The position numbers and the translations under genes were made by a program. From Candidatus Poseidoniales archaeon (lineage in GTDB: Archaea > Thermoplasmatota > Poseidoniia > Poseidoniales > Poseidoniaceae): DNA of 27,438 nucleotides. Under the pieces are notes generated by a model. That model did no database searches. It was not told the origin of the DNA and worked only from the letters and a program-made list of their open reading frames with translations. The stretch is from the NCBI GenBank assembly GCA_012959845.1, contig DUCL01000092.1, positions 1-27,438 of the forward strand, in the 5' to 3' direction. Of this stretch, positions 1 through 27,438 are shown one piece after another; positions within the stretch are counted from its first letter, which is position 1; each line of letters starts with the position of its first letter.

Positions 1-3000
1 GCCTGTTCCTTGTAAGTGAAATTAAGTCTTGGTCTGCTATCAACATCTGCGGATTCACTACTGTGTAATGCATAAGACCCCATCGCGGTTGTTCCATCTT
101 GCTCACCTTGGAGAATTAGAGAGATTGTACTTTGACCATTCTGAATTGCTGCTTGAATCGCAGCAGTCATGTTCCAAATGACTATGTCAGTAGAAGAACT
201 AATCCATTCACCTTCTGTAAATGGGATGTCACTATCAGCACTTTGATGTGCCCCCGGTGCTAACCAATTTACTGTAGATGATGCACCGACCCATTGAGAA
301 GATTCATTCCAATAAGTATTCATCACTGATACTGAAGTATATACTGAACCTGAACCAGAAGCAACTGTCATTTCTAAAGTAGCGTTTTGAATCTCATAGG
401 CACTTGGTAGAGGAAGGACTCCTAGATCAAACGAAATAAGTGTGTTAGCATAATGATTATTTGACAAAGAACTTCTTCCAACATGCAGTACTCCAGCATT
501 GCCAAAACTATTGAACCGATTACCGCTATCAAGGTAGGTATCTTCCGTAATTGCAGGATATCCTAATGGCTCCACATATGCACCTTCTTGAAGCGATACC
601 CATGCTGTAGTTGAATCAACTTCGCCACTCTTTTCCTCCGGAATATGGAATACTGTAGAGGTACTACGTGGACCGAACATCTCATCCACAATTGGTTGTA
701 CCATCCAACGTACTTCGCGGGTATGACTAATGTCAGTTCCAGGTGTGAATGTAAGGTTTGTTAAGTCAAATAATTGCGGATGTGTCCTAGAATCATATGT
801 GGTTAACCCTTCCATTTCCTCGTTTGCATCAGCCATAATGTGAATTCTCCAATCATCAATATTTGCTGAATTAGAATGAGTCCAAGACATAGTTGGTTTG
901 TATTCTGGTATTACTGCATGAGAAGACGTATTCCAAGTAATCATGTTATTGATAGGGCCAGTATTGCTTCCTGCCACTGTTGGTATTGTAGCACTACCAT
1001 TAGTCCAAGTCAAATTAAGCCATGGTTTGTCTGATGAAGTACTATCCGTTGAAATAAATTGAACATAATCTTGAGTCACTGTTGAAGATGCATAAATCAT
1101 CAATGATAGTTCGCTAGAACCGGCGGCTTGTGCTGCTTGTATTGCTTCAGTAACATCCCAAGTCATCCAATCAGCAGACACACTGTCTTGAATATCTACA
1201 TAATTTCCAACATCTAAACCGATATGCCTTCCACCTAATGCTGACCAATTGTTAAGTCCATCATATGTTGTGTCATTTGCGTCTGCATTCCAATTTTGCA
1301 GAACTGGCCTAATTGCTAATGGCTCGCCAATCGCTGAACCAAATAATGAGTATAGACTCAAATCTGCATTTGTGATTCTTGCATTACTCGGATTTGGTAA
1401 TTGATTGAGTGGTATTTTTATCAATCCTGCAGACTGATATCCTGATGACATTTCCCCAACATAAATGTAACCCGACGCATCATATGTTGAACTTGAACCA
1501 CTTCCACCTTCGAGCACATATGTGTCTGTGAAATCGGGAATGTTGAGTGCTGGCATTGCCTTTCTGTGACGCAATTCTACTGCTGCACTCTCTGAATCAA
1601 TAGACCAAGTAGTAATATCTGGTAAAAGGAAATTAAAAGTTTGAGACCAATTACCAAGTTGGTTGGTTGTGGAAATTGCTCTTACTCTCCAATACCAAGT
1701 AGTAGCATTATCCAAATTACTTGAAGGCGTAAATGTGAGGTTTGTTGTATCGAAACCAGAATCTAACCATGATGTAATCATCAATAGATCTGGAGAACTG
1801 AATGATGTAGACTTGTCCAATTGGACTGCCCAGCCACCAATACTCATGCTACCATTGAACGTCCATCCTAATTCGGGTCGATGTTCAGGTGCGGTCTCAA
1901 TGCCTGGGGTAATAGACCAAGAACCATTCAATGGAGTGGTTGGAACTGGGTTATCCGGTAATGCGTCAGAACCTGGGACATACACAAAGGAAAGTTGTGG
2001 CCTATAACTCTCTGTAGAAGTAGAACCAGGATATATCATCATATCACGGTCACTACCAGTTCCAACACCAGTCACACCAATGAGGAAATCCACAGCCCTA
2101 TCTTCGCGCATTGCATTTTGAACACCTAATGTCACATTCCATTCAACAGTATCACCTGCTGTATAGGAACTGCCAATTGTTGCTGAATCGATAAGAGACC
2201 CTCTCTCCCAACCCTTTGCACCAGCTAATCCCCAATTGTTGACCCCATCGTATGTTGTCCAAGTTGCATCTTCTGCTGACCAATTATGCTGCCTACTTTC
2301 CCAAACGGCAACATTTGGTGAACCAAGTGGGTAATCTGCTAATTTAACGCTTAAATGGGCAGACTCAACTGCATAGCCATTTGGCAATAAATTAGCAACA
2401 AGATTGCAATTAAACAGTACGCTTGTTTCACTAGGCCAAGTGTTGTATGAAATTTGCATTTCTGTTTCACCATCATAGTTGGTATTTGGAGAGCCACTGT
2501 CAATGTATGTGTCGTCACATTCTGGGTAAAGGCCATCGGTAGTTCCATTTCCATCTCTGAGTCTAAACTCATATCTATCATCTCCCAACCAAGTGCTTGA
2601 TAATCCACTTACTAGGAAATTGGAATAACTCCATTCACCTCGTAGTCCATCGTTGTCAACATGTGACATTCTCCAGAAATACATATTTCCAGTAGTTAAT
2701 TCATCAACTCCAGTTAAGTTGAAAATTCCTTGGCTAGAAGTGAAGTTTGAATCTGTTCTAGTATCTACTTGGTTTACTATATCGCGGAAAAATTGGTCGG
2801 TTGCTATTTGGAATAATATGTCATATGATGTACTTGGAGGAAGAGGAGGGCTTGAACTAGCCCAAGTAAGAGAAGGAGTTGAATTTCCGGATAGATTGTG
2901 CCCTACTTGGTCCCATACCGCTTTTCCTTGCTCTGGTCCGGTTAGTGTAGGTGTACCAATTGTAGTGTTAGAACTCCAACTATATGTTAATTCAAAATTT

Positions 3001-4628
3001 GGCTTCTTAGCATCGTCACTACTCTCTGATGAATAGAAATTGATTCCTTGTAATCCGCTAGATGAATATGACCCAGTATCACTTCGACCAATCACCATGA
3101 AATCCTTGGAGCCTGAAGCACCATCTCGAATCCATCCCTGAATTGCATCAGTGATTTCAAAGGATTTATCTGTTGAAGATGATGTACCGACCATCGTGTC
3201 GCTAGAAACTGAAAGCAAACCTCTTCCCCCATCATCCCATAGTGTTGATGAATCAGAACGTCTCCAAGTTGTATCATCTTCAACCCAAACACCTTCAGTA
3301 TTCACTTCATGAATAGACAATTCCGGCGCACCTGAAGTTGAAAATCTAGTTAAATTAATTTCCGCACTTTGTATTGTTGCATTACTATGCAATCCAATTT
3401 GGTCTAAATGTAATCTCATATGAACTAATGATTCTTTGTTGGTTGACATCATTACTTCCATTTTATCATTTGAACCAAATTTCTGATTGATGGAACGTTG
3501 GTCAACTTGTGCATCCTCAATGAAATCATCAGTCAAGCCCATGTCATCTGCATCAATTTCAATCGTTGCAGTACCGTCGCCATTATCGGTAACCAATAAT
3601 GTAGGTAGCAAGAAATAACTATCATTCCAATCGCTAAGAGTATCAGTAGAATCAATCGAACGCACACGGTAGAAAACCACTGAGCCATTGGATAATTCAT
3701 CCCCACTTGGGACGACAAAGGTTCCAGACCCGCTAGATGTTGAGAAAGAATTTTGCATTGTGCTATAATGCCATGAAAGGTCTGCAAATGCCTTGAAGTC
3801 TGGATCCAATGATAATTGGAATTCCACACCATCGCCCACCAATGAGTTGTAGGATAATGTTGGGTTCTTTTCCGCCATTAGGATGAAATCTCCAGTCATC
3901 AATGCCGCACCTTCTTCAACGAAATCTGCTGAAACACTTCCGCCATTGCCGGCTGCTGAGGATGATGTGTCCAATATTAGAGATGGTCTGTCGGCTATTA
4001 TAGTTGAATCATTCATGGCACAGGAATATTCTTCCCCCTCAGACGCGATTAAGAGTTCAAGTGTGTTTTGATTACTAGAAGCTGCTTGCTGTGCATGTGC
4101 GGTGACATTTATCAGCATTGTTCCATTTGCTGCTGCACGGTGTGGCGGTTCCCAAACACCACGCTCAGTTGAACCATCAGCACCAGGTGAATTCCACAAA
4201 ACATTTGTTGCAGAATTCATCCATGTAACCTCGGATACATTCCATGAAGAAGTGATTGCTGCTGAATAGATAGCGATATCGGTAGAACCTGTTGCATCAC
4301 TCCCACACTTCAAACTCAATGTTGCAGAATGGATTGTATCGGTAGAGCCAAAACTCATATTGAAACTGAACAATAAGCGTGTTGGAGAACTAGTTCCTCC
4401 CTCGAGTGTACCATTTTGTGCTTGCTCAAAATTATCGGTTGGATTAAATGAATCAATGTAAGTATCTGCTGCCGGTGAGACATTAGAAATGACTCTGTTT
4501 ACTGAAGGTGAATTTTCCAATTCCTTCCATTCCGGTATTGCACTTGGCAATGCTAAATCAGCAAATAAAAATAGAACAATCAATAAAACGGCTACCGAAG
4601 TTTGTGGTTTTTTGTTATCGCGTAGCAT
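1..4628 (-). CDS. Giant secreted repeat protein, >=5 DNRLRE (CBM96/TGF-beta-propeptide-like) modules alternating with FnIII/Ig-like domains; 3'-truncated at window start
   Basis: Manually translated from ATG 4628: MLRDNKKPQTSVAVLLIVLFLFADLALPS (signal peptide-like). The frame reads open to base 1 (..SESADVDSRPRLNFTYKEQ); it is absent from the ORF track because there is no stop. Repeated DTY(I/L/V)-type motifs at ~4460, 3510, 2510, 1520, 540 and (R/K)PxL-type module ends at ~3990, 3000, 2000, 1030, 30. Confidence 0.85.
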   Translation of the reverse strand, partial: MLRDNKKPQTSVAVLLIVLFLFADLALPSAIPEWKELENSPSVNRVISNVSPAADTYIDSFNPTDNFEQAQNGTLEGGTSSPTRLLFSFNMSFGSTDTIHSATLSLKCGSDATGSTDIAIYSAAITSSWNVSEVTWMNSATNVLWNSPGADGSTERGVWEPPHRAAANGTMLINVTAHAQQAASSNQNTLELLIASEGEEYSCAMNDSTIIADRPSLILDTSSSAAGNGGSVSADFVEEGAALMTGDFILMAEKNPTLSYNSLVGDGVEFQLSLDPDFKAFADLSWHYSTMQNSFSTSSGSGTFVVPSGDELSNGSVVFYRVRSIDSTDTLSDWNDSYFLLPTLLVTDNGDGTATIEIDADDMGLTDDFIEDAQVDQRSINQKFGSNDKMEVMMSTNKESLVHMRLHLDQIGLHSNATIQSAEINLTRFSTSGAPELSIHEVNTEGVWVEDDTTWRRSDSSTLWDDGGRGLLSVSSDTMVGTSSSTDKSFEITDAIQGWIRDGASGSKDFMVIGRSDTGSYSSSGLQGINFYSSESSDDAKKPNFELTYSWSSNTTIGTPTLTGPEQGKAVWDQVGHNLSGNSTPSLTWASSSPPLPPSTSYDILFQIATDQFFRDIVNQVDTRTDSNFTSSQGIFNLTGVDELTTGNMYFWRMSHVDNDGLRGEWSYSNFLVSGLSSTWLGDDRYEFRLRDGNGTTDGLYPECDDTYIDSGSPNTNYDGETEMQISYNTWPSETSVLFNCNLVANLLPNGYAVESAHLSVKLADYPLGSPNVAVWESRQHNWSAEDATWTTYDGVNNWGLAGAKGWERGSLIDSATIGSSYTAGDTVEWNVTLGVQNAMREDRAVDFLIGVTGVGTGSDRDMMIYPGSTSTESYRPQLSFVYVPGSDALPDNPVPTTPLNGSWSITPGIETAPEHRPELGWTFNGSMSIGGWAVQLDKSTSFSSPDLLMITSWLDSGFDTTNLTFTPSSNLDNATTWYWRVRAISTTNQLGNWSQTFNFLLPDITTWSIDSESAAVELRHRKAMPALNIPDFTDTYVLEGGSGSSSTYDASGYIYVGEMSSGYQSAGLIKIPLNQLPNPSNARITNADLSLYSLFGSAIGEPLAIRPVLQNWNADANDTTYDGLNNWSALGGRHIGLDVGNYVDIQDSVSADWMTWDVTEAIQAAQAAGSSELSLMIYASSTVTQDYVQFISTDSTSSDKPWLNLTWTNGSATIPTVAGSNTGPINNMITWNTSSHAVIPEYKPTMSWTHSNSANIDDWRIHIMADANEEMEGLTTYDSRTHPQLFDLTNLTFTPGTDISHTREVRWMVQPIVDEMFGPRSTSTVFHIPEEKSGEVDSTTAWVSLQEGAYVEPLGYPAITEDTYLDSGNRFNSFGNAGVLHVGRSSLSNNHYANTLISFDLGVLPLPSAYEIQNATLEMTVASGSGSVYTSVSVMNTYWNESSQWVGASSTVNWLAPGAHQSADSDIPFTEGEWISSSTDIVIWNMTAAIQAAIQNGQSTISLILQGEQDGTTAMGSYALHSSESADVDSRPRLNFTYKEQ

Positions 4629-4833
4629 GGGACTCGTTCCTCTCACCTCGTCCCCTTTATACTGTCTTTTCCCTTAATGGTCATGAAAAACTGGTTCAAA
4701 ACGACATATTCTCCCTACGGGAGAGTAAATGATGTTAGTTGATGATATCCCCAAATATCTGGACTATATTTCTAATCATTTCAAATCTGAAGCAGGCCAA
4801 TGTTGAAGGAGGCTCGCCACAGAGGGGATACCT

Positions 4834-10407: not shown

Positions 10408-13203
10408 TCATATTTTCTTCGCTCTTGCTAGCAGGCCGGTTGAACCTGTTTCTGAATCACTTTCTGAATCCTTTTCTTCATCATTATCTGATATATCATT
10501 ACCGACTTCTTGTTCTACATCCAGTGATTCCTGGCGGAGTAAGTGCGCATTAGAATTCGAATTCTTGTTGATGAATATCACAAGTGCAATGATTAGTAAT
10601 ATTCCCACCATTGCGATTATCATTTCATTAGAAATAGAATCACTTTGAATGTTTTCAGATTCTTCAGCAGGTGGCTTGAGATTCATGTCCAAGGTATATT
10701 CTATTCCGACTGTTTGATTTAATTCTAAGTCAGTGACGCGAATAGTGATTGTAATATTCCCATCGTGCTGTTGTGGCAATACGAGCATTGTAACACATTT
10801 GGATATGTGATTAGTTTCATCATTATTACATGATGAAGTGACATTCTGTGAAATGTTTTCAAGATAGAAAGTAACATCTGCTGATAGTTCTTCATCCAAA
10901 TCAATGAGGTCCCATTGAACTGTAGCAGCCGTTTTGTCAATCAGATTTACATTGCCAATCGTAATAGTAGGCAAATCTGGTTGGGGATTGATTGTTACAT
11001 TTAATGTTGCAGAATAATGGCTATTTCCATCGCTGACATTCAGATTTTGAGAATTACAAATTCCATATTTATCTGGTTTCATATTGATCAATAAGTCATT
11101 GCCAGCGATGACAAAATTGCATTTAGAAGATTCAATACCCTCAATCGACCAAGTCAACGGGTCATCATCAATATCATAAGCAAAATCACGCAAATCTAGA
11201 ACCATTGATTCGTCTTCTGTAGCATTAATGTCCCATGCGGTGTTATTGGTCACCAATATGTCGTCAACCGCTAGTACATTTATAGGAATATCTAGGTTTA
11301 ATGCGGGATTAAAACCATCTCCAACCAGCATATGAATCACTACTGCACCATTTTGATTTGCAAGTGGTGTAATTGTTACGAAACCATCTGCAATGTTTAC
11401 TGAAACTGGGCCTAATTGTGAAGATGCATTGGTATTGATTAGGCCAGCAATTTCCTCACCTTCCGGGTCAAAAACATATTCAGATAAATTCAATATAACC
11501 GGTGCTGAATCTTCATCCATCACCTGCAATGGTATATTTTTAATCAAAATAGCAGGGTCATCAACTGGCATTACGCGCAGTGTTATTTCTGCTGTTGCTT
11601 CGTCAATAGTTTGACCACCCGCACTTAATTCAAGCCTTAGATTATTCAGGCCAGTCCATTCTTCATCTAAACTATGGAACACAGTAAATCCGAGGCTATC
11701 AGAATCAATTTGGAAGTGGAAATGTTGGGAGTTTTGGCCAACTAATGTTGCATTTTCAACAAATACACTCTGTCCATCAGGGTCATACGCTATTAGACCA
11801 TTTTCAACATGAGTGCTACCTCTTTGAGGAATGTCGATAATTGCAGGTGGAGTCAATACAACCAATGGTGAATCTGTTCTAATAATGTTCAGGTGTCTAT
11901 GAGAAGGAGCCCCTTCAACATATACGCTAATTGTCAAACGATTCTGCCCCGGTTGAACATCAGCCATTGGGAATAAACAAATTGCCACACCACCACTGTT
12001 AATTTGTCCGAGGGTTGTATTTTCTGCGGAATCAATAGCACAATTCACAGTTACATTCCATTCACTGGGCAACTGTGAATAATTTAATCCATTACGTAAA
12101 GTCCAATCCATTTTCAAATTCACTGTATCTTCTGGACCCATCGATTCATTATTATTAGGCACCGACCAAATAGCACCAACTTTGAGCCAATCTGCAGAAG
12201 ACAGATTTTCAACAACATAAGAATCTGGGTCGGCGACAATACTTGATGAGACCGGCCTATTGAAAGCATCACGGAAACGACTGTGATCTCCCCTTAATGC
12301 TGCATCCAAATAGGCAACAATATGAGTTGCACTCAAATCCAATTGTGCCTCTTTACTCATTGTAGCATCACCATCATCATTTTCAAAAATTGAAGTTGTG
12401 TCCTGGAATTGGTAGTGATTTGCACCCAATAAGTGCATCAATTGCCATGAAAAATCTTTGATTGTGTGAAGTCTGGTTATTGCATCCGATGCAGGAGCAA
12501 CTTCATCGGTAGTTCCAGTAATGAAGAATCCTGTATTTGGTGCAGGCGCCTGCCAATCCGTTGTTGAGAATGCTCCAACTTGTTGATTCCATGAAGAAAA
12601 GTCGGCACCGACTGCAAATATTCCGCTCGGCCCATGTGTTGTATTTCCATTATCGCTTGCTAGCCAATTTGGATAGAGTGATGTTGCGGTCATTGCTCCA
12701 ACTCCATGACCGGCAAGCGCCCAGTGATTTACATCGATATTACCAAATCCTCCTAAAATTACAGAGTGGGAGTTATTTGTGTCATTCATCAATTCAAGTG
12801 CTGTTTGGGCAATCTCAATTCCTTCCGAAAGGTCGTTAGAGTCCTGCATTTCTTGTGTTACCAATACAATGTAACCGCGTTTTACGATTTTACTTGTCAA
12901 TTCCATATAACCATCTTGTGCCTCACCATCTGAACCAAAAAAGAGGACCCAAGGGAATGGACCATTACCGGCCATTTCATCATCGCTCCCACCTATCATC
13001 GCAGGATATATCATCTCAAAACCTTGTGAATTAGGTCCGAAACCAATGCTGATATCACTCCAGCCAATTGGGAAATCAACACCTTCATGTGTTGGCTCAA
13101 AATTATCGTCCTCTTGTAATAATGAAGCGCTAACGAGGGGAAATAATGCCGAAAACATCAGCATTGATAAAATGAATAATGATGATTTTTCAATTCCTCT
13201 CAT
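10408..13203 (-). CDS. Secreted, C-terminally anchored alpha/beta-hydrolase-fold protein with cadherin/Ig-like repeats; nucleophile Ser absent
   Basis: Signal peptide (SSLFILSMLMFSALFPLVSA), YPA..GPFPWVLF..Y..L..RGYIV, elbow GHGVG, ITGTTD, GANHYQF, repeats with VDD/DED/DPEG motifs, TM IIAMVGILLIIALVIFI, acidic tail. ATG 13203 preferred over TTG 13221. Confidence 0.85.
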   Translation of the reverse strand: MRGIEKSSLFILSMLMFSALFPLVSASLLQEDDNFEPTHEGVDFPIGWSDISIGFGPNSQGFEMIYPAMIGGSDDEMAGNGPFPWVLFFGSDGEAQDGYMELTSKIVKRGYIVLVTQEMQDSNDLSEGIEIAQTALELMNDTNNSHSVILGGFGNIDVNHWALAGHGVGAMTATSLYPNWLASDNGNTTHGPSGIFAVGADFSSWNQQVGAFSTTDWQAPAPNTGFFITGTTDEVAPASDAITRLHTIKDFSWQLMHLLGANHYQFQDTTSIFENDDGDATMSKEAQLDLSATHIVAYLDAALRGDHSRFRDAFNRPVSSSIVADPDSYVVENLSSADWLKVGAIWSVPNNNESMGPEDTVNLKMDWTLRNGLNYSQLPSEWNVTVNCAIDSAENTTLGQINSGGVAICLFPMADVQPGQNRLTISVYVEGAPSHRHLNIIRTDSPLVVLTPPAIIDIPQRGSTHVENGLIAYDPDGQSVFVENATLVGQNSQHFHFQIDSDSLGFTVFHSLDEEWTGLNNLRLELSAGGQTIDEATAEITLRVMPVDDPAILIKNIPLQVMDEDSAPVILNLSEYVFDPEGEEIAGLINTNASSQLGPVSVNIADGFVTITPLANQNGAVVIHMLVGDGFNPALNLDIPINVLAVDDILVTNNTAWDINATEDESMVLDLRDFAYDIDDDPLTWSIEGIESSKCNFVIAGNDLLINMKPDKYGICNSQNLNVSDGNSHYSATLNVTINPQPDLPTITIGNVNLIDKTAATVQWDLIDLDEELSADVTFYLENISQNVTSSCNNDETNHISKCVTMLVLPQQHDGNITITIRVTDLELNQTVGIEYTLDMNLKPPAEESENIQSDSISNEMIIAMVGILLIIALVIFINKNSNSNAHLLRQESLDVEQEVGNDISDNDEEKDSESDSETGSTGLLARAKKI

Positions 13204-13205
13204 AC

Positions 13206-13221
13206 TTGCCACATGTGGCAA
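13206..13221. promoter_or_regulatory. Perfect 16-bp palindrome TTGCCACATGTGGCAA, candidate operator
   Basis: Self-complementary. Extends to 13202-13225 with one mismatch. Lies directly upstream of ATG 13203 (- strand). Confidence 0.55.
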
Positions 13222-15069: not shown

Positions 15070-15699
15070 ATGAGTGGACTCTTTTCTTCAATATTAGGAT
15101 TTTTAGGCTTAGAAGCCATTACTGGCGTAGACTTATTATTTGCAGGTTCTGCAATTGTGGGCACTATACTATTTTTGATATATTTTGTTCTGGTTCTAGT
15201 TGGCGGTGTTGCGGATGGGGCAATGGATGCTTTAGGCTTTGACATTGACTTGGATGTCGGGGCTGAAGGAATATTCCATATGCTAACAATACAAGGATTA
15301 CTGAGTTTCATGATGATGTTTGGTATTTTTGGACTAGGTGTTTCTCAATCAAATGATAATGTATTGTACGCAATTGGTGCAGGTACAATCGCCGGTATAG
15401 GCTCTATGTGGGTTATTGGTAAAGTATTCCAATTGATGAAAAGTTTAGAGACCGATGGTACTGTAAAATATCACGAAGCAATAGGGGCTAAAGGAAAAGT
15501 GTATCAAACAATTTACCCTGGAGATTCTGGTCAAGTTCAAGTAGAATTCACTGGAGCCCTTAGAACTGTCTCCGCAGTTAGCCAAAATGAAAAGGAAGAA
15601 ATAAAAACTGGAAAATTCATTCAAGTGGTTGACCACATTGGTGAAACTCTAATTGTAAAAGCAATTTCAGTCACTGTTTCTAATGATTCTGAAGAATAA
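15070..15699 (+). CDS. NfeD-like membrane protein with C-terminal OB-fold (YuaF/YqiJ-type flotillin partner)
   Basis: N-terminal TM helices, then IGAKGKVYQTI.PG..GQVQV.......AVS......G..I.VV...G.TL.V typical of NfeD-C; adjacent to flotillin. Confidence 0.85.
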   Translation: MSGLFSSILGFLGLEAITGVDLLFAGSAIVGTILFLIYFVLVLVGGVADGAMDALGFDIDLDVGAEGIFHMLTIQGLLSFMMMFGIFGLGVSQSNDNVLYAIGAGTIAGIGSMWVIGKVFQLMKSLETDGTVKYHEAIGAKGKVYQTIYPGDSGQVQVEFTGALRTVSAVSQNEKEEIKTGKFIQVVDHIGETLIVKAISVTVSNDSEE

Positions 15700-15749
15700 G
15701 GTTCAACATAATCGGGTCAAGACTCATAAAGGAGTGCTTGCATGGCTGT

Positions 15750-17147
15750 ATGAGTACTATGGCATCAGGAGCATTGTTTCTTTTAGGAATTGGATTATTT
15801 GTAGCAGTTGTAATGGGGACAATCTATATCGCAACATCAAGATATAAGTTGGCACCATCTGACAAGATTTTGGTTGTATATGGTAATGTAAAGACTGGTG
15901 GAGCGGCCGCCTGTTACCACGGTGGTGGACGAGTCGTTTGGCCTCTAATCCAGCATTATGCATATTTAGATCTAAAACCTATGACTATTCTAATCAATCT
16001 TGAACACGCACTTTCGTCACAAAATATCCGTGTTACTGTGCCTTCAACATTTACTATTGGTGTGTCGACAGAGCCATCAATTATGTCAAATGCTGCAGAG
16101 CGTTTACTTGGATTAAACCAGCCACAAATTGAAGATATGGCTAAAGAAATTATTTTTGGTCAACTACGTCTTACAGTTGCATCTCTTTCAATTGAAGCAA
16201 TCAATTCAGACAGAGAGGCTTTCTTGCGAGATGTTTCATTAAATGTTGACACTGAACTGCACAAGATTGGACTTTACCTAATCAACGTTAACATCATCGA
16301 TATTACTGATGAATCAGATTATATCAAATCCATCGGTGTTGCTGCTGCTACAGAGGCTATTGCTAAAGCGGATATTGCCCGTTCAACCGCTGAGAGAGAT
16401 GGACGCATTGGTGTATCTAATCAAGAGATGGAAATGAGAACTCAAGTTGCTAATAACGATGCAGAAGCTGTGAAAGGTGAGAAAGATGCTGAAACAATGA
16501 AGCGTATTTACATCAACCAACAAGAAGCACTTGCGGTTGAAGGTGAAAACGTTTCAGCGGCATCTATCGCTCATTACAATGCTGATCTTGCTGAGAAAGA
16601 GGCTGAAGCACTTCAACGTTCAGAAGTTGCAAAGCGTATGGCTCAAGTAAATATTCAGAAGGCTCAATATGAAATGGAAGGAGAAAGACTCCGTGCTGAA
16701 GAAATTGCTCGTGAAGAAATTGCTAAGGAACAAATCGAAATCGCTGCTTCTGCTGAAGCAAGCAGAGAACGCCTAATCGCACAAGGTCAAGCGGATGCTA
16801 TTCTTGCGCGATATAATGCAGAGGCTGCTGGACAACAAGCAGTATTAGAAGCAAAGGCTGTTGGTTACGCACAACTAGTAAAGAGCGCTGGTGGCGACGC
16901 AAAAGCCGCTGCTACCTTGCTAATGGTTGAGAAGATTGAAACATTAGTTGCAAAGCAAACTGAGGCAATATCTAACCTGAAGATTGACAAGATTACTGTT
17001 TGGGATTCTGGTAATGGAGGAGAATCCGGAGGTTCAACTGCGAACTTCATCTCCTCTCTAATCAAGTCTTTACCACCGGTACATGATGTTGCAGCAATGG
17101 CTGGCGTTGACCTTCCAGATTACCTTGGAACTGTCAAAGACGAGTGA
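15750..17147 (+). CDS. Flotillin-like SPFH/band-7 protein
   Basis: N-terminal TM, ILVVYG, GGGRVVWP, SPFH core (GQLRLTVASLSIE.IN.DRE.F), AE/EA-rich coiled coil, IDKITVWD and LIKSLPP end. Start ATG 15750 or 15759 (track TTG 15738). Confidence 0.93.
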   Translation: MSTMASGALFLLGIGLFVAVVMGTIYIATSRYKLAPSDKILVVYGNVKTGGAAACYHGGGRVVWPLIQHYAYLDLKPMTILINLEHALSSQNIRVTVPSTFTIGVSTEPSIMSNAAERLLGLNQPQIEDMAKEIIFGQLRLTVASLSIEAINSDREAFLRDVSLNVDTELHKIGLYLINVNIIDITDESDYIKSIGVAAATEAIAKADIARSTAERDGRIGVSNQEMEMRTQVANNDAEAVKGEKDAETMKRIYINQQEALAVEGENVSAASIAHYNADLAEKEAEALQRSEVAKRMAQVNIQKAQYEMEGERLRAEEIAREEIAKEQIEIAASAEASRERLIAQGQADAILARYNAEAAGQQAVLEAKAVGYAQLVKSAGGDAKAAATLLMVEKIETLVAKQTEAISNLKIDKITVWDSGNGGESGGSTANFISSLIKSLPPVHDVAAMAGVDLPDYLGTVKDE

Positions 17148-23888: not shown

Positions 23889-26800
23889 TCAAGCCTTGAG
23901 GTCGTATGCCAATCCGCTCCAGGAGCGAAGTAGAGCACCTTGCGCATTTGCCGGAGCATATGACATGGTGATCGTGACATCGGTCAAAGGTGTACCATCA
24001 GGTGCGTGGGTGCGTACATAGACTTCATCACCAGTGTTGAAGGTAGAAATCGACTTGGTTCCTTCCTTATTCACTTGGTCTACGAATGTGACGAAAGCGT
24101 CACTGTTTGCAGGGTTGAACCCGTAAACATCGTTAGTATCAGCCAAATTGGCAGTGAAGGTCTGGGGAGACCCACTTGCATCCACATAGAACACACGGAC
24201 TTCAACAGCTTGAGTTGCCAAGTCTGTTTCAGATTGTGTCACTGAGATTCTCCAGTGACCTTGATCCGCGTCTCCACCATTGATATCCTCAATAGAGAAG
24301 GTGACTCTAGGGACACCCTTGACATCAGTTTCAGCTAGACTAGAAGCCCACACGTAGATTACACCTGATAGAACCACTGTGATAGCGACCATTAGAATGG
24401 TTGCGATAACAGGGGATACTGCAAGTTCATCTTCTACGATAGACTCTTCCAATGCTTCCTCGTCCTCATCACGGCGTCCGGAAAGTGCAAGAGCACTGAC
24501 AAAGACACCAGCAAGGCTCACAGCAATAATGCTAGGAGCGAAGGAAGGAACTGCACCTGCGCCGATTGTACCGACTACAGTTGGCAGATCTTGTCCACTT
24601 GCCTCAAAGGTTGAAGATGGCTGGTTAGCGTGTGCACATGTTGCTGCAGTACCAAGACTGGACATCATGTTGTTACACCAGTTGCTGTCTTCAAGTAGAG
24701 GTCGGCGTTCAGAGGTCTGTGTAGCATTGCTACCGTATTGACCAGGCTTGGACCAATCTGCTCCTTGTTGTCCTTGGTTGTTAGAACGGTGGGAAGCAGG
24801 GCTATCAGTCTGGAAACGCTCAGTAGCAGGTGCTAGCACGTCACAAGGGTTAGCCATACAGGTCTTGACATCCATCTCGACCCAAACGTTTGTTGTATCC
24901 TTTGTGATGTACACATCTTCAGTGATCGCAACTGATGTTCCATATGCTGGTACAGCGTAGTAGCGTGTTTGCTCAACTTCAGAGTGACCGTCTGTGTGGT
25001 AGGTAATCGCCAACATGTGGTCGTAGGTGTAAGGACCTTCATCTCCGCCAGCAGTAACATCAACAGTAACTGGTACATATGTTCCAGTCATGATGTTGCT
25101 AACTCCATTGAAGGAGAATCCTGTATTTGCACTGAATCCGTAGTCAGCAACAAGCTCACGTACTCTTTCAACACGGATACCAATCTCTTGTGTAGCAACA
25201 CCTTGCGAATAATCTGCAATTGGCATCAAAGCAGTATCGTAATTAGGAACATACGATGGTGCAGATGCTGTGTCACGTAGTACCAAACGGATTTGACAGT
25301 AGTCAGATCCGGTCGGTCCGATTTGGTGGATACCGTTGTCGTTCAAGTAGTCAACTTCCCAATCAAATCCATTGGTTGTTGCATCTTCAACTAGGTCCAA
25401 GACTAAGTCATCACCAACAATTGATGCAGCGAAGTAGTTACCGTATACACACTGGTCTGTAGACTCAATTTCCCAAGTCAAATCAGAGTCCTCGTGGTCG
25501 ATATCGTCCTTCATTGCAGCAAGACTGAATGTCAAGTTGGCAGCAGTGGTATCGTCTTCCATGACTGAAAGCTTCCAAGGGATTGTGTTAACAGATCCGT
25601 TGTCTGGATTCACTGAAACAGTTCTTCCTTCATCATCGGTCATCGATGCGTTCCAGTCAACAATAACTGGAGCGTCGTTAACAGGTGATACTGAGAAATC
25701 AACATCAAACGCAATTGCATCTTGGTCCCCTACTCCATCATCGGATAGAGTCAGAGTAACCGTACAGGTGCCTCCAAGTTCGTTGTTTGTGTTCTCGGAA
25801 AGAACCAACTCGTTGAGTGAGTTCACTTCAGCAGTGAAGGCAATACATGTTGAAGGTACAGATGCACCCCATGTGTAGACTTGTCGTACTGGCGCTTGCT
25901 CGTTAGCCATGTCACGGATGTATGAACGTGTTGCATTGCTTACATCTCCCAAGAACTTGGTATGTGAACCGAATCCTTCTGGCAGAATGTTGTTGAATGA
26001 CACATCCTCAGAGAAGAGAGGCATACAGTCTATTTCATCAATATTACAAATCACTGGTGCGTCATTGACGTTTTCAACTTCGAATGTTATGTTCTTAGAA
26101 TCAGTCAATCCGTTGCTGTCAGTTACTTCGAAGCTGTAGGTCATAGTACCGAACTGGTTGTCAAGAGGTGTGATAGTTACTTGGTGACCATTTTGGTTCC
26201 AATCAACTAGTATGCCGTCGTGAGCAACAAGGTTACTTTCAGCAGATGTCCAGGACATTGTTGCCTCATCGTCTTGCAAGTCATCAGCCATGTTAGTTAG
26301 GCTGAATGAGTAAGCACCTGAGTCTTCGTTGACAGTGATGTCATCGAGAGATGTTCCAATAACAGGACAAGCACGCTCCATATCTAGGTTGAGGTTAGCA
26401 TTGGTTGCCATTGATAGGTCCTCAGTAACAGCCCAGTCATATGCACAGTCTGCAGAGGTCTTGATCATTACATCGTAGGCCTTTGCAACACTTGGTGTGC
26501 TAGATCCCTTGTATGTGCGGTATACTAGTACTTCATCAGCAATTGAACCGGTTAGCAAATCATTGTGCGTCAACTCAACAGTGATGTATTCACTGAAGGT
26601 TTGCAAAGTGCTTCCGCTGTCAATTGTCTGAGTTGGGTGAACAGTGCTGACATCAGCAGTGCTCTCACCTTGTACTATTGCAACAATGTCAACTTGACTT
26701 GGTGTTCCACCCATACGGCTGAACGGTATTGAAATCTCAGCAAAACTGCCAGAGAAGTCTACCGAAATAGCGTCTTGACTCAATGATGTTGGTCCCCATC

Positions 26801-27438
26801 CAAGGAAACCATATGAGTACAGGTCGTATGATGAATCACTGTCTGCCCATAGAACATAATTCGCAGGTACAGGTAGTGTATGTGCACCGCCCATTCCATT
26901 GTATCCAGTTGTAGATCCACTTCCATCAGTACTGATGTAAATCAGTAGGTCAGAGTTAGATAGATCCTCGCCGGTCAATCCGAAGTATAGGTTATCGCCT
27001 TCAATATATGTCATAGACATGTCATTGGTACTGTCACCGCTCATTACACCTGGCATTGCATATCCAGATGGGTTCAGAGCGTTTCCACCGTTCCAGTCAC
27101 TGTCGTCACCGTCAACAACCATGTTTTCTGGTTGGAAACTTGTGGACACGTAAGAAGCACGTGTTCCGTCAGTGGACTTGATGAGAAGAGCAACTTCGTT
27201 CGATGGAGTAGCAGTCAAGTGAGTGCTGTCCATTGTGAAGAGGTTTGCTTCATCAATTGTTGCGGTAGAATCAACGATCAACTTAGATGCGTTAAGAGAG
27301 TTACCAATAGAGGTAATGTATGCGTTTGAACCTGCATCAATTTGTGTTGTTGAAGTCCAAGTCATGTTCTCAACTGTTCCTACTGATTCGTCGACCTTCA
27401 ATGCGGTAGTTGCATCAGCAGTACCACCATCCCAACGG
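23889..27438 (-). CDS. Giant cell-surface protein (DOMON/CBM9-like and cadherin/Ig-like domains) with sortase-type TM and C-terminal archaeal type IV pilin domain; 5'-truncated
   Basis: Frame is open past the track start to the window edge (RWDGGTADATTAL..). Contains DGDDSDW, VNDAPV repeats, VPSFAP-TM-GRR and AVSPVIATILMVAITVVLSGVIYVW; stop TGA at 23891-23889. Confidence 0.88.
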   Translation of the reverse strand, partial: RWDGGTADATTALKVDESVGTVENMTWTSTTQIDAGSNAYITSIGNSLNASKLIVDSTATIDEANLFTMDSTHLTATPSNEVALLIKSTDGTRASYVSTSFQPENMVVDGDDSDWNGGNALNPSGYAMPGVMSGDSTNDMSMTYIEGDNLYFGLTGEDLSNSDLLIYISTDGSGSTTGYNGMGGAHTLPVPANYVLWADSDSSYDLYSYGFLGWGPTSLSQDAISVDFSGSFAEISIPFSRMGGTPSQVDIVAIVQGESTADVSTVHPTQTIDSGSTLQTFSEYITVELTHNDLLTGSIADEVLVYRTYKGSSTPSVAKAYDVMIKTSADCAYDWAVTEDLSMATNANLNLDMERACPVIGTSLDDITVNEDSGAYSFSLTNMADDLQDDEATMSWTSAESNLVAHDGILVDWNQNGHQVTITPLDNQFGTMTYSFEVTDSNGLTDSKNITFEVENVNDAPVICNIDEIDCMPLFSEDVSFNNILPEGFGSHTKFLGDVSNATRSYIRDMANEQAPVRQVYTWGASVPSTCIAFTAEVNSLNELVLSENTNNELGGTCTVTLTLSDDGVGDQDAIAFDVDFSVSPVNDAPVIVDWNASMTDDEGRTVSVNPDNGSVNTIPWKLSVMEDDTTAANLTFSLAAMKDDIDHEDSDLTWEIESTDQCVYGNYFAASIVGDDLVLDLVEDATTNGFDWEVDYLNDNGIHQIGPTGSDYCQIRLVLRDTASAPSYVPNYDTALMPIADYSQGVATQEIGIRVERVRELVADYGFSANTGFSFNGVSNIMTGTYVPVTVDVTAGGDEGPYTYDHMLAITYHTDGHSEVEQTRYYAVPAYGTSVAITEDVYITKDTTNVWVEMDVKTCMANPCDVLAPATERFQTDSPASHRSNNQGQQGADWSKPGQYGSNATQTSERRPLLEDSNWCNNMMSSLGTAATCAHANQPSSTFEASGQDLPTVVGTIGAGAVPSFAPSIIAVSLAGVFVSALALSGRRDEDEEALEESIVEDELAVSPVIATILMVAITVVLSGVIYVWASSLAETDVKGVPRVTFSIEDINGGDADQGHWRISVTQSETDLATQAVEVRVFYVDASGSPQTFTANLADTNDVYGFNPANSDAFVTFVDQVNKEGTKSISTFNTGDEVYVRTHAPDGTPLTDVTITMSYAPANAQGALLRSWSGLAYDLKA

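Follow-up and report, generated by a model that had tools for sequence, protein, structure and literature searches.

A single open reading frame of the Poseidoniales encodes a surface precursor of about 4,500 residues together with a pilin-type C-terminal module, and this fusion of a giant protein to a pilin is real and has been kept across the order. The organisms concerned, Marine Group II archaea (Poseidoniaceae), belong to the most common archaea in the surface ocean and are still uncultured. The window that we analysed is the whole of one contig (DUCL01000092.1, 27,438 nt, assembly GCA_012959845.1) of a MAG that is 78% complete, and on its minus strand the frame is open throughout, from the contig end (27437) to a stop at 23889-23891. 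Read in order and with no stop, it comprises a V-x-S-F-x-P-S motif, a membrane helix (TM1), an Arg-Arg pair, a 16-residue acidic linker, the junction A/VSPVIATILMVAITVVL and a 146-residue beta-sandwich (Table 1); the window otherwise contains housekeeping genes, with no archaellum operon around the giant gene. The coordinates given in the preliminary description all proved correct when the frame was read again: VPSFAP, helix and GRR occupy residues 963-989 of the protein P0001 (nt 24551-24471), Ala(-1) is encoded at 24422-24420 and Val(+1) at 24419-24417, and 176 residues run from that Val to the stop.

Table 1. Features of the giant gene and its pilin-type tail in the window
Feature	Position	Strand	Remarks
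Giant surface-protein gene, 3' part	23889..27437	-	1182 codons + stop; 5' end missing at contig end
Pre-anchor motif L-P-x-V-V ... S-V-x-S-F-x-P-S	24531..24587	-	P, V, V, S, F, P invariant (n=78)
Membrane helix TM1 (IIAVSLAGVFVSALALSG), out to in	24477..24530	-	Hydrophobic run; AF2 helix 32-58 of model
Arg-Arg stop-transfer pair, cytoplasmic side of TM1	24471..24476	-	R in 99% and 95% (n=78)
Acidic linker, predicted cytoplasmic (DEDEEALEESIVEDEL)	24423..24470	-	16 aa here, 16-20 aa in orthologues
In-frame TTG, candidate internal start	24450..24452	-	Behind GAGGA repeats; ATG in closest relatives; not conserved
Predicted class III signal-peptidase site Ala(-1)/Val(+1)	24417..24422	-	Scissile bond between nt 24420/24419
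Pilin H-domain, first 30 residues of would-be mature pilin	24330..24419	-	Pilin_N and TIGR02537 above cut-off
Globular beta-sandwich of pilin module, 146 aa	23892..24329	-	AF2 pLDDT 70-86

At full length the orthologues measure 4,510-5,507 aa, and one of them (L030:1128-14684, 4,519 aa) carries a secretion signal at its N-terminus, followed by a giant ectodomain in which some parts are Ig/cadherin-like and others beta-helix-like. The pilin signal does not stand at the N-terminus with a short leader in front of it; it is preceded by the giant ectodomain and a membrane helix, so that the predicted class III site falls at about residue 4,343 of about 4,520 in that orthologue and at residue 1006 of the 1182 in the window. 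The secretion signal of the full-length orthologue, the Arg pair after TM1 and the standard orientation of prepilins together argue for the membrane topology that had been put forward earlier, namely outside, TM1, cytosolic linker, second helix, outside.

Within the genus the same unbroken frame occurs in 35 of 36 genomes, it recurs in three families of the order, and none of the 76-78 distinct junction sequences drawn from public Poseidoniales MAGs contains a stop. Ectodomain and pilin are invariably found in one frame and are absent together. Contigs from four independent RNA libraries cross the junction without an indel or a joint. A sequencing or assembly error that deleted the stop between two genes, which the check on continuity was to reveal, is hence a negligible possibility, refuted by the recurrence of the open frame in 78 distinct species-level sequences and by the RNA contigs. 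The fusion is undescribed in the full-text literature searched, which included Rinke 2018 (PMC6461757), Hou 2016 (PMC5069720), a survey of archaeal T4F systems published in 2026 (PMC13705601) and Kreutzberger 2023 (PMC10334743), and a precedent for internal A24 cleavage behind a membrane helix was likewise not found there.

The giant protein and the pilin are also transcribed as one unit, from a gene that is highly represented in marine RNA libraries. Depth over the pilin part and upstream of it was 283 vs 230-190 in one case and about 1057 vs 916-979 in another (mean contig depths, in which transcript starts are invisible), the gene next to the giant gene having a depth of 0; since depth is equal on both sides of the junction, there is no abundant pilin-only transcript. 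A scan for sigma-70 promoters and terminators around the junction, ill-suited to archaeal promoters, returned nothing beyond what shuffled sequences gave.

By profile search the C-terminal module belongs to the pilins, as had been proposed. Pfam Pilin_N (PF07790) matched residues 1006-1069 with 35.3-40.2 bits (E 2e-8 to 6e-10; curated cut-off 25.2 bits) and residues 4342-4406 of a full-length orthologue with 37.8 bits, and TIGR02537 scored 32-36 bits on the module (cut-off 20 bits). The amino-acid entropy of the H-domain is 0.14 bits, vs 1.43-1.47 for the ectodomain, the linker and the globular part, and from Ala(-1) to +30 no fewer than 25 of 31 positions are invariant (n=78), despite the saturation of synonymous sites across the orthologues; such constraint, judged from the alignment, is typical of a working pilin rather than a plain anchor. 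With the free major pilin encoded on contig C22 of this genome the H-domain shares 27 of 30 residues, and that pilin likewise has Ala at -1 and D/E at -3, while three free pilins (P0050, P0073 and P0141) align with the entire module at 30-40% identity. In the module the H-domain varies as little as it does in the free pilin that forms filaments; no lineage-specific co-variation of fused and free H-domains was seen, both being near-invariant and the M-to-L change of one family being unmirrored. A near-unchanged H-domain is common to the paralogous pilins of a cell, here as in PilA1-6 of Haloferax volcanii, for which Esquivel et al. are said to have described in 2013 an H-domain almost unchanged among the paralogues.

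The AF2 model places a helix, a disordered loop corresponding to the linker, a second helix and a beta-sandwich in that order, and predicts a pilin-type fold for the C-domain, as the preliminary description had assumed. Its structural comparison rests on VIA re-alignment, in which FlaF (Z 8.2), archaellins (7.0-7.3) and a pilus subunit of the Thermoplasmatota (Cuniculiplasma, 6.9) were the nearest neighbours, although generic Ig folds likewise reach Z 6-7 against the globular domain. The Foldseek ranking against the PDB was set aside: the extra helix and the unconstrained angle of the helix kept TM-scores low (0.2-0.5), and the matches included Kir channels, which combine a helix with an Ig domain. 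That the FlaF family, the best neighbour, is unprocessed counts against a cleaved module. By sequence, the closest solved chains are the PilA2 filaments of H. volcanii (8FJ5) and Natrinema (8GI2), with alignments that span the leader end and the helix (PMC10334743).

The haloarchaeal adhesion pilins (Pilin_N/DUF1628; H. volcanii PilA1-6, 8FJ5, 8GI2) are indeed alike in several respects, with the same acidic leader end, the same Ala and the same VSPVI(A/G)xILMVAITV helix, in the same HMM family and with a helix followed by a beta-sandwich. They differ in that their signal is N-terminal behind a leader of about 10 residues, whereas in the giant protein it lies about 4,340 residues in, with a second helix before it and a giant exported "leader". 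At the junction itself, the sequences before VSPVI (DDSA in 8FJ5 and EERA in 8GI2) resemble the end of the linker, and Ala(-1) and Val(+1) occur without exception in 78 of 78 sequences, each of them written with all four of its codons. Across the orthologues (n=76-78) position -7 is always I, M, L or F, -5 is D/E, -4 is D and -3 is D/E, with acidic residues at -3 to -5 in 93-97%. The Leu at -2, which had been raised as a caveat, weighs little, since this position is variable across the orthologues and is Ser or Arg in the two solved chains. The free pilins of the genome have E at -7 and K/R at -5 in their leaders, and the linker agrees with them only at -1 and -3; this unlikeness, together with the strong divergence of the candidate peptidase, also counts against cleavage.

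Enzymes that could process such a precursor are encoded in the genome. A direct search with Peptidase_A24 (PF01478) returned nothing in this genome or in four near-complete relatives, a blank that we ascribe to sensitivity, because a weak match led to a 333-aa protein with an orthologue in the genome itself (C67:4216-5235). This divergent candidate reaches 33.0 bits with Arc_PepC_II (cut-off 29.9) and only 10.7 bits, below the cut-off, with PF01478, and it bears WMDHKERRVKN and HGGADAK motifs of catalytic type. A complex prediction of the peptidase with TM1, linker and pilin scored 0.02 against a mark of 0.32, which lends no support to an interaction but by the tool's own statement is not evidence against one either. 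Three pairs of assembly ATPase and T2SSF platform protein (C10, C170 and C45) complete the inventory, along with archaeosortase A (C169; 93.4 bits with TIGR04125, cut-off 75) and a second archaeosortase that is unclassified (C255), both located with the TIGR04178 and TIGR04125 models; an Exosortase_EpsH match on C144 (17.6 bits) was rejected, the 223-aa frame being unlike an archaeosortase.

We therefore consider, with about even confidence and on evidence that is comparative throughout, that a class III signal peptidase cuts the precursor in two, a giant protein that stays anchored and a pilin that takes its place in the filament of the major pilin. A Sec-type signal would export the giant ectodomain until transfer is halted by TM1, with the Arg pair and the acidic loop of 16-20 residues remaining in the cytoplasm; the pilin helix would then cross the membrane again and place the beta-sandwich outside. 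This would be exactly the topology of a prepilin, in which the giant protein and TM1 stand for the short leader. The divergent A24 peptidase would presumably cut after the invariant Ala, and leave on one side the giant protein, held by TM1 and ending in a short acidic tail, and on the other a mature pilin, probably a low-copy (minor) one at one per giant protein, that could enter the same filament because the H-domains are almost the same. As to origin, a stop may have been lost between a surface-protein gene that ended in motif, helix, Arg pair and acidic tail and a pilin gene downstream; we infer this from the tails on further surface proteins of the genome and on the upstream neighbour at orthologous loci, which run through a PGF-like motif, a helix, an Arg pair and an acidic tail to a stop. 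Under such an origin the hydrophobic residue at -7, often Met, might be a relic of the old start codon. In the modular type IV pilins of bacteria (Streptococcus sanguinis PilB and PilC), adhesive modules are displayed on the pilus. They too unite a pilin and a bulky functional module in one chain, but there the module sits on the C-terminal, outward end and stays attached, whereas the bulk of the giant protein lies N-terminal to the signal, so that an extra membrane helix is needed and probably also a cut.

Alternatively, the tail might never be cut, and TM1, loop and pilin helix would form a two-helix anchor that holds the beta-sandwich beside the giant ectodomain, a reading that we deem somewhat unlikely. 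The pilin helix would then owe its conservation to packing partners within the membrane (pilins, the platform protein or the peptidase), and the hairpin might hold the giant protein at a pilus base or be the last, membrane-retained subunit of the pilus, in the manner of FlaF/ArlF and FlaG/ArlG. Linker features that are strictly conserved (the hydrophobic residue at -7 and D at -4) are missing from the free-pilin leaders, and cleavage by an A24 peptidase at an internal site lacks known precedent; we know of no class III signal peptidase (A24) that cuts internally behind a membrane helix. Likewise in favour of an uncut tail, it is the soluble domain of FlaF that the globular part matches best in structure, and FlaF and FlaG, which derive from a pilin or archaellin by duplication, remain unprocessed and membrane-retained at the base of type IV filaments (PMC10334743). 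These proteins share the pilin-derived helix and beta-sandwich with the module, but they are small and free-standing, whereas the module retains an invariant site and a Pilin_N score and lies outside any archaellum operon. Against an uncut tail speak, further, the invariance of Ala(-1) over 78 species in spite of saturated synonymous sites and an H-domain as invariant as that of a pilin that forms filaments. An unreleased module could also be specifically the last, membrane-retained subunit of the major-pilin pilus, the filament being covalently tied to the 4,500-residue protein through the hairpin. We rate this more specific proposal as rather improbable; it draws on the FlaF-like fold, on the linker's own features and on the argument that, for steric reasons, no subunit but the basal one could bear an N-terminal extension.

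A further question concerns the anchor, which had been labelled an archaeosortase signal. Archaeosortase substrates end in tails such as PGF-CTERM, processed by ArtA (as in the S-layer glycoprotein of Haloferax volcanii), or VPXXXP-CTERM, processed by ArtB, and the C-terminal position of the signal is a defining trait. The anchor of the giant protein has the three-part form, S-V-x-S-F-x-P-S, 18-20 hydrophobic residues and an Arg pair, with V, S, F, P and R invariant and a TM1 entropy of 0.68 bits (n=78); the likeness to these substrates extends to the large surface protein that precedes it and to the presence of ArtA in the genome. The label itself fails the model tests and is not supported: no CTERM sorting-signal model of NCBIfam matched the whole protein or its last 253 residues at E <= 1, the second Pro of "VPxxxP" is P in only 81% and otherwise A/T, the motif reads V-x-S-F-x-P-S instead, and some 193-195 residues follow the Arg pair. 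Neighbouring surface proteins do bear PGF-like tails. It is possible that the motif serves for sorting or for packing.

If it were a sorting signal after all, the precursor might be processed twice, an archaeosortase cutting at V-x-S-F-x-P-S outside TM1 and lipid-anchoring the giant protein, and a prepilin peptidase trimming TM1 and linker off the pilin. Such double processing, the full model of the preliminary description, modifies the cleavage reading rather than strictly competing with it, and we think it unlikely. The form of the anchor, the invariance of V, S, F and P in 78 species and the two archaeosortases of the genome would fit it, as would the recurrence of the same VPSFAPSIIA, helix and Arg-pair tail, in this genome and in relatives, at the true C-terminus of an unrelated CARDB-like protein of about 620 aa (on C33), after which no pilin gene follows. 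The second archaeosortase, moreover, shares the giant protein's distribution over genera, with one genus (g11) in addition. On the other side, PGF-CTERM, VPXXXP-CTERM and the other CTERM models are silent and the signal is not C-terminal; the motif is carried by only two proteins per genome, the giant one and the CARDB-like one; and the genus-level co-occurrence is not specific and rests on a small number of independent losses, in streamlined genera that have no pilins at all.

It had also been suggested that the TTG in the linker could allow internal initiation. The pilin would then be made mainly alone, from a linker codon behind SD-like runs of the GAGGA type, as an ordinary prepilin with a leader of 7-11 residues, the fusion arising as a by-product of read-through between overlapping genes that lack a stop. 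The free pilin genes of the organism are preceded by GGAGGAC, 6-7 nt and ATG, GAGGA runs stand before the TTG or ATG in this clade, and 57 of 76 orthologues have an in-frame ATG in the linker, often at -7, -2 or -11. Nevertheless, 14 of the 76 (6 of 21 in a smaller set) have no ATG, GTG or TTG there, many clades write the linker in GAA/GAT without GAGG, and the Glu/Asp codons of the linker are at maximal synonymous entropy, so that no SD sequence is selected for. With equal RNA depth on both sides of the junction, and with stop loss leaving the module on every full-length chain in any case, internal initiation is unlikely as a conserved route, and we regard this account of the pilin as quite improbable.

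To our knowledge, a class III signal peptide is always taken to be N-terminal, and tools for finding pilins look for it only there. Here a signal of class III type lies about 4,340 residues inside a protein and is under strong selection across an order. If the tail is left uncut, the giant protein would represent a new kind of pilus-linked anchor, and if the module is the terminal subunit, a giant adhesin and a pilus would be coupled as one mechanical unit with a built-in pilus terminator and anchor, an arrangement to which neither bacteria nor archaea offer a counterpart known to us. If the tail is cut, A24 (GxGD) peptidases would act as internal endoproteases on substrates with two helices, and the giant adhesin and the pilin would constitute a polyprotein at a fixed 1:1 ratio. 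A pilin would then be made or docked in a new way, which may offer a handle on the attachment of these cells to particles and algae.

The window comprises all of contig C92, which belongs to a MAG of 1.87 Mb that is 78% complete. Beginning at the contig end (27437), the minus-strand frame of the giant protein contains no stop until 23889-23891. On re-reading, all coordinates assigned to its last 220 residues in the preliminary description proved correct, and the part from Val(+1) to the stop comprises 176 residues.

Positions of the features discussed (C, contig of the genome of the window; G, related genome)
Feature	Sequence	Position	Strand	Remark
VPSFAP, hydrophobic helix and GRR	window	24551-24471	-	sequence reading
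Acidic stretch DEDEEALEESIVEDEL	window	24470-24423	-	sequence reading
Ala followed by VSPVIATILMVAITVVLSGVIYVW	window	predicted cut between 24420 and 24419	-	sequence reading
CARDB-like protein L047	C33	5979-6773	-	ends ...GLVPSFAPSIIA, helix, RRSND, stop
Peptidase L044	C67	4216-5235	-	
Pilin tail in a shorter frame	G032, C1	462030-462770		
Pilin tail in a shorter frame	G008, C1	145653-146381		
Pilin tail in a shorter frame	G003, C1	482661-483386		
Pilin tail in a shorter frame	G018, C2	162604-163314		
Two tail copies	G028, C20 and C15	1107-1835 and 19684-20409		94% and 73% identity to window
Surface protein, 937 aa	window	10408-13221	-	
Second very large secreted protein	window	3-4646	-	
Small membrane protein, then flotillin	window	15070-17147	+	

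Among 61 related genomes searched with the last 243 residues, the same unbroken frame was recovered in 35 of the 36 genomes of the genus and also in each of the three families sampled, with an open frame of 4,510-5,507 aa wherever the gene is complete. A stop between the anchor helix (TM1) and the pilin in orthologues had been named as the mark of an artefactual fusion; none occurs in 76-78 distinct junction sequences. Ectodomain and pilin tail always lie within one ORF, and both are absent together from the small-genome genera. The GTDB species genomes added 80 loci of the giant-protein tail, 79 of them in MAGs labelled Poseidoniales, Poseidoniaceae, Poseidonia or broader archaeal groups, which identifies the organism as Marine Group II (MGII). 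Furthermore, contigs from four independent RNA libraries span the junction with neither indel nor joint; over 800 nt, one of them is identical to the window. Because their depth drops to zero at the neighbouring gene, they represent transcription and not carried-over DNA; the depth of the pilin part is about equal to that upstream (283 versus 230-190, and about 1057 versus 916-979).

Several loci deserve separate mention. L097 (NZEQ01000026.1), a 22-kb contig with the tail of this Poseidoniales gene, was assigned to a Verrucomicrobiales MAG, probably by misbinning. The frame that contains the pilin tail measures just 715-2,480 aa in some near-complete, few-contig relatives, versus about 4,500; the gene could truly be split there, or a frameshift or long-read assembly error could be responsible. 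The two tail copies in one relative could be paralogues or two strains binned together.

The match of the C-terminal module to pilins is beyond chance, with the proposed Pilin_N affiliation scoring 35-40 bits on residues 1006-1069 (Pfam cut-off 25.2) and TIGR02537 32-36 bits (cut-off 20). The pilin fold expected of this domain is likewise supported by an AlphaFold2 model of the tail, computed from 21 aligned orthologues, in which TM1 (helix 32-58) is followed by a disordered loop, the pilin helix (74-100) and a beta-sandwich (pLDDT 70-86). The highest-ranking structural neighbours come without exception from the archaeal type IV filament superfamily: the soluble domain of FlaF reaches Z 8.2, archaellins 7.3 and 7.0, and a Cuniculiplasma pilus subunit 6.9, with generic Ig folds next (Z 6-7). 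Sequence comparison puts two solved chains nearest, PilA2 in the H. volcanii pilus 8FJ5 (Kreutzberger et al. 2023, PMC10334743) and PilA2 of Natrinema (8GI2). When 1.8 billion representatives were searched exhaustively without a profile, all strong full-length matches (E < 1e-19) were C-terminal ends of 4,372-5,559-aa proteins or fragments thereof, and ordinary free pilins of 160-180 aa aligned to the whole module at 30-40% identity. The module belongs by HMM to the Pilin_N adhesion pilins and would work like them; unlike theirs, for which an N-terminal position is a defining trait, the signal of the giant protein is not N-terminal.

Mean amino-acid entropy across 78 distinct sequences is 1.43 bits in the ectodomain, 0.68 in TM1, 1.47 in the linker and 1.43 in the globular pilin domain, and 0.14 in Ala(-1) plus the first 30 residues of the would-be mature pilin (H-domain), where 25 of 31 positions are invariant. 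Since synonymous codons in this stretch are near saturation, the invariance reflects protein-level selection, not recent ancestry; a merely membrane-spanning helix would drift like TM1, which the H-domain does not. The H-domain shares 27 of its 30 residues with the free major pilin encoded on contig C22 of this genome. The leader of that pilin is an ordinary one of 10 residues, M-x-N-E-x-x-N-[DE]-[EQ]-A, and the pilin itself hardly varies across the order. In 76 orthologues, whose loop spans 16-20 residues, the junction carries Ala at -1 (100%), D/E at -3 (97%), D at -4 (93%), D/E at -5 (93%) and always I, M, L or F at -7, resembling the leader ends of the 8FJ5 (...NDDSA-VSPVIGVILMVAITV) and 8GI2 (...DEERA-VSPVIGVILMVAITV) precursors. 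Since these solved pilins have Ser or Arg at -2 and the orthologues show free variation there, the caveat once raised over Leu(-2) carries little weight.

With PF01478 alone, no peptidase was found in this genome or in four near-complete relatives. Following up a weak match revealed a membrane protein of 333 aa that carries the motifs WMDHKERRVKN and HGGADAK and scores above cut-off for Arc_PepC_II; its orthologue in this genome (L044) shares 64% identity and reaches 33.0 bits (cut-off 29.9). The genome also encodes three ATPase/platform pairs (C10, C170, C45), at least two free pilins, archaeosortase A (TIGR04125, 93.4 bits; cut-off 75) and a second, unclassified archaeosortase; both enzyme types suggested for a check, prepilin peptidase (in a divergent A24-type form) and archaeosortase, are thus encoded. 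Additionally, free major pilin genes (L045 on C22, L055, L059, L050, L052-L054) share a conserved 5' region: some 55 nt upstream there is a TATA-like box, GGAGGAC stands 6-7 nt ahead of the ATG, and the leader contains a C-rich hairpin (CCCCCG, 4 nt, CGGGG) that may be regulatory. A DUF1628 gene of MGII is reported to have a very strong start site (Hou et al. 2016, PMC5069720).

A full-length orthologue carries an N-terminal secretion signal, so the giant ectodomain lies outside and TM1 must run from out to in, from which the topology initially proposed (outside, TM1, cytosolic linker, second helix, outside) follows. RR and the acidic loop would be cytoplasmic and the pilin helix would run from in to out, thereby placing the Ala-Val bond where A24 peptidases cut prepilins. 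Given the pilin-grade constraint on site and H-domain and the presence of the machinery, the most likely course appears to be that the precursor is cleaved and the pilin enters the major-pilin filament, a reading with about an even chance of being correct. A predicted complex of the peptidase with the tail scored 0.02 against a mark of 0.32, which for this method speaks neither for nor against cleavage. The main rival, an uncut hairpin working like FlaF/FlaG at the filament base, would account for the linker's own conserved features and for the absent precedent of internal cleavage but explains the invariant Ala less well, and we consider it rather unlikely, though a serious contender. Initiation of the pilin within the linker seems highly improbable: 57 of 76 orthologues have a linker ATG, and GGAGGAC-type ribosome sites are demonstrably used before the organism's free pilin genes, but 14 of the 76 have no linker start codon, GAGG is absent in many clades, the linker Glu/Asp codons show no constraint and RNA over the pilin part is not in excess.

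Additional archaeosortase processing of the giant protein is unlikely, the anchor failing two of the four tests for this family. The anchor had been read as an archaeosortase signal; its layout of motif, helix and RR was seen correctly, but CTERM models gave no match to it and the second Pro of 'VPxxxP' is just 81% conserved (78 distinct sequences), the conserved residues being V, S, F and P of S-V-x-S-F-x-P-S and L-P-x-V-V twelve residues earlier. The VPSFAPSIIA-helix-RR tail recurs at the true C-terminus of the CARDB-like protein L047 in this genome and relatives (orthologues of about 605-637 aa in five); no pilin gene lies downstream of it on C33. Other surface proteins of the genome, and likewise the gene directly upstream in orthologous loci, end in a PGF-like motif, helix, RR, acidic tail and stop. 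Because the first half of the linker (RR-x-DDEEE) resembles such an acidic tail and the second (a hydrophobic residue, often Met, at -7, then x-[DE]-D-[DE]-x-A) a short pilin leader, we infer that a stop codon separating the gene of an anchored surface protein from a pilin gene was lost long ago.

Elsewhere in the window, the surface protein of 937 aa carries Big_9/cadherin-like repeats and closes with one membrane helix plus a long cytoplasmic tail rich in Ser, Asp and Glu, another of this genome's 'helix plus acidic tail' anchors. The second very large secreted protein has a signal-like helix at its N-terminus and numerous N-x-S/T sites; at least 1,548 aa long, it runs off the contig start. 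The small membrane protein has no Pfam match, and the gene after it encodes a flotillin (Band_7 and Flot). According to Rinke et al., citing earlier work (PMC6461757), MGII transcribes flotillin at a high level.

No description of a surface protein-pilin fusion was found in the literature searched in full text, including a 2026 survey of archaeal type IV filaments. The fusion is real and conserved; it represents a variant of the type IV pilin precursor that has apparently gone undescribed, with a proposed mechanism of processing. The lineage's class III signal peptidase scores only about 11-17 bits with PF01478, the archaeal C-terminal domain PF06847 alone passing, and MGII would be scored as being without this enzyme in surveys relying on PF01478.
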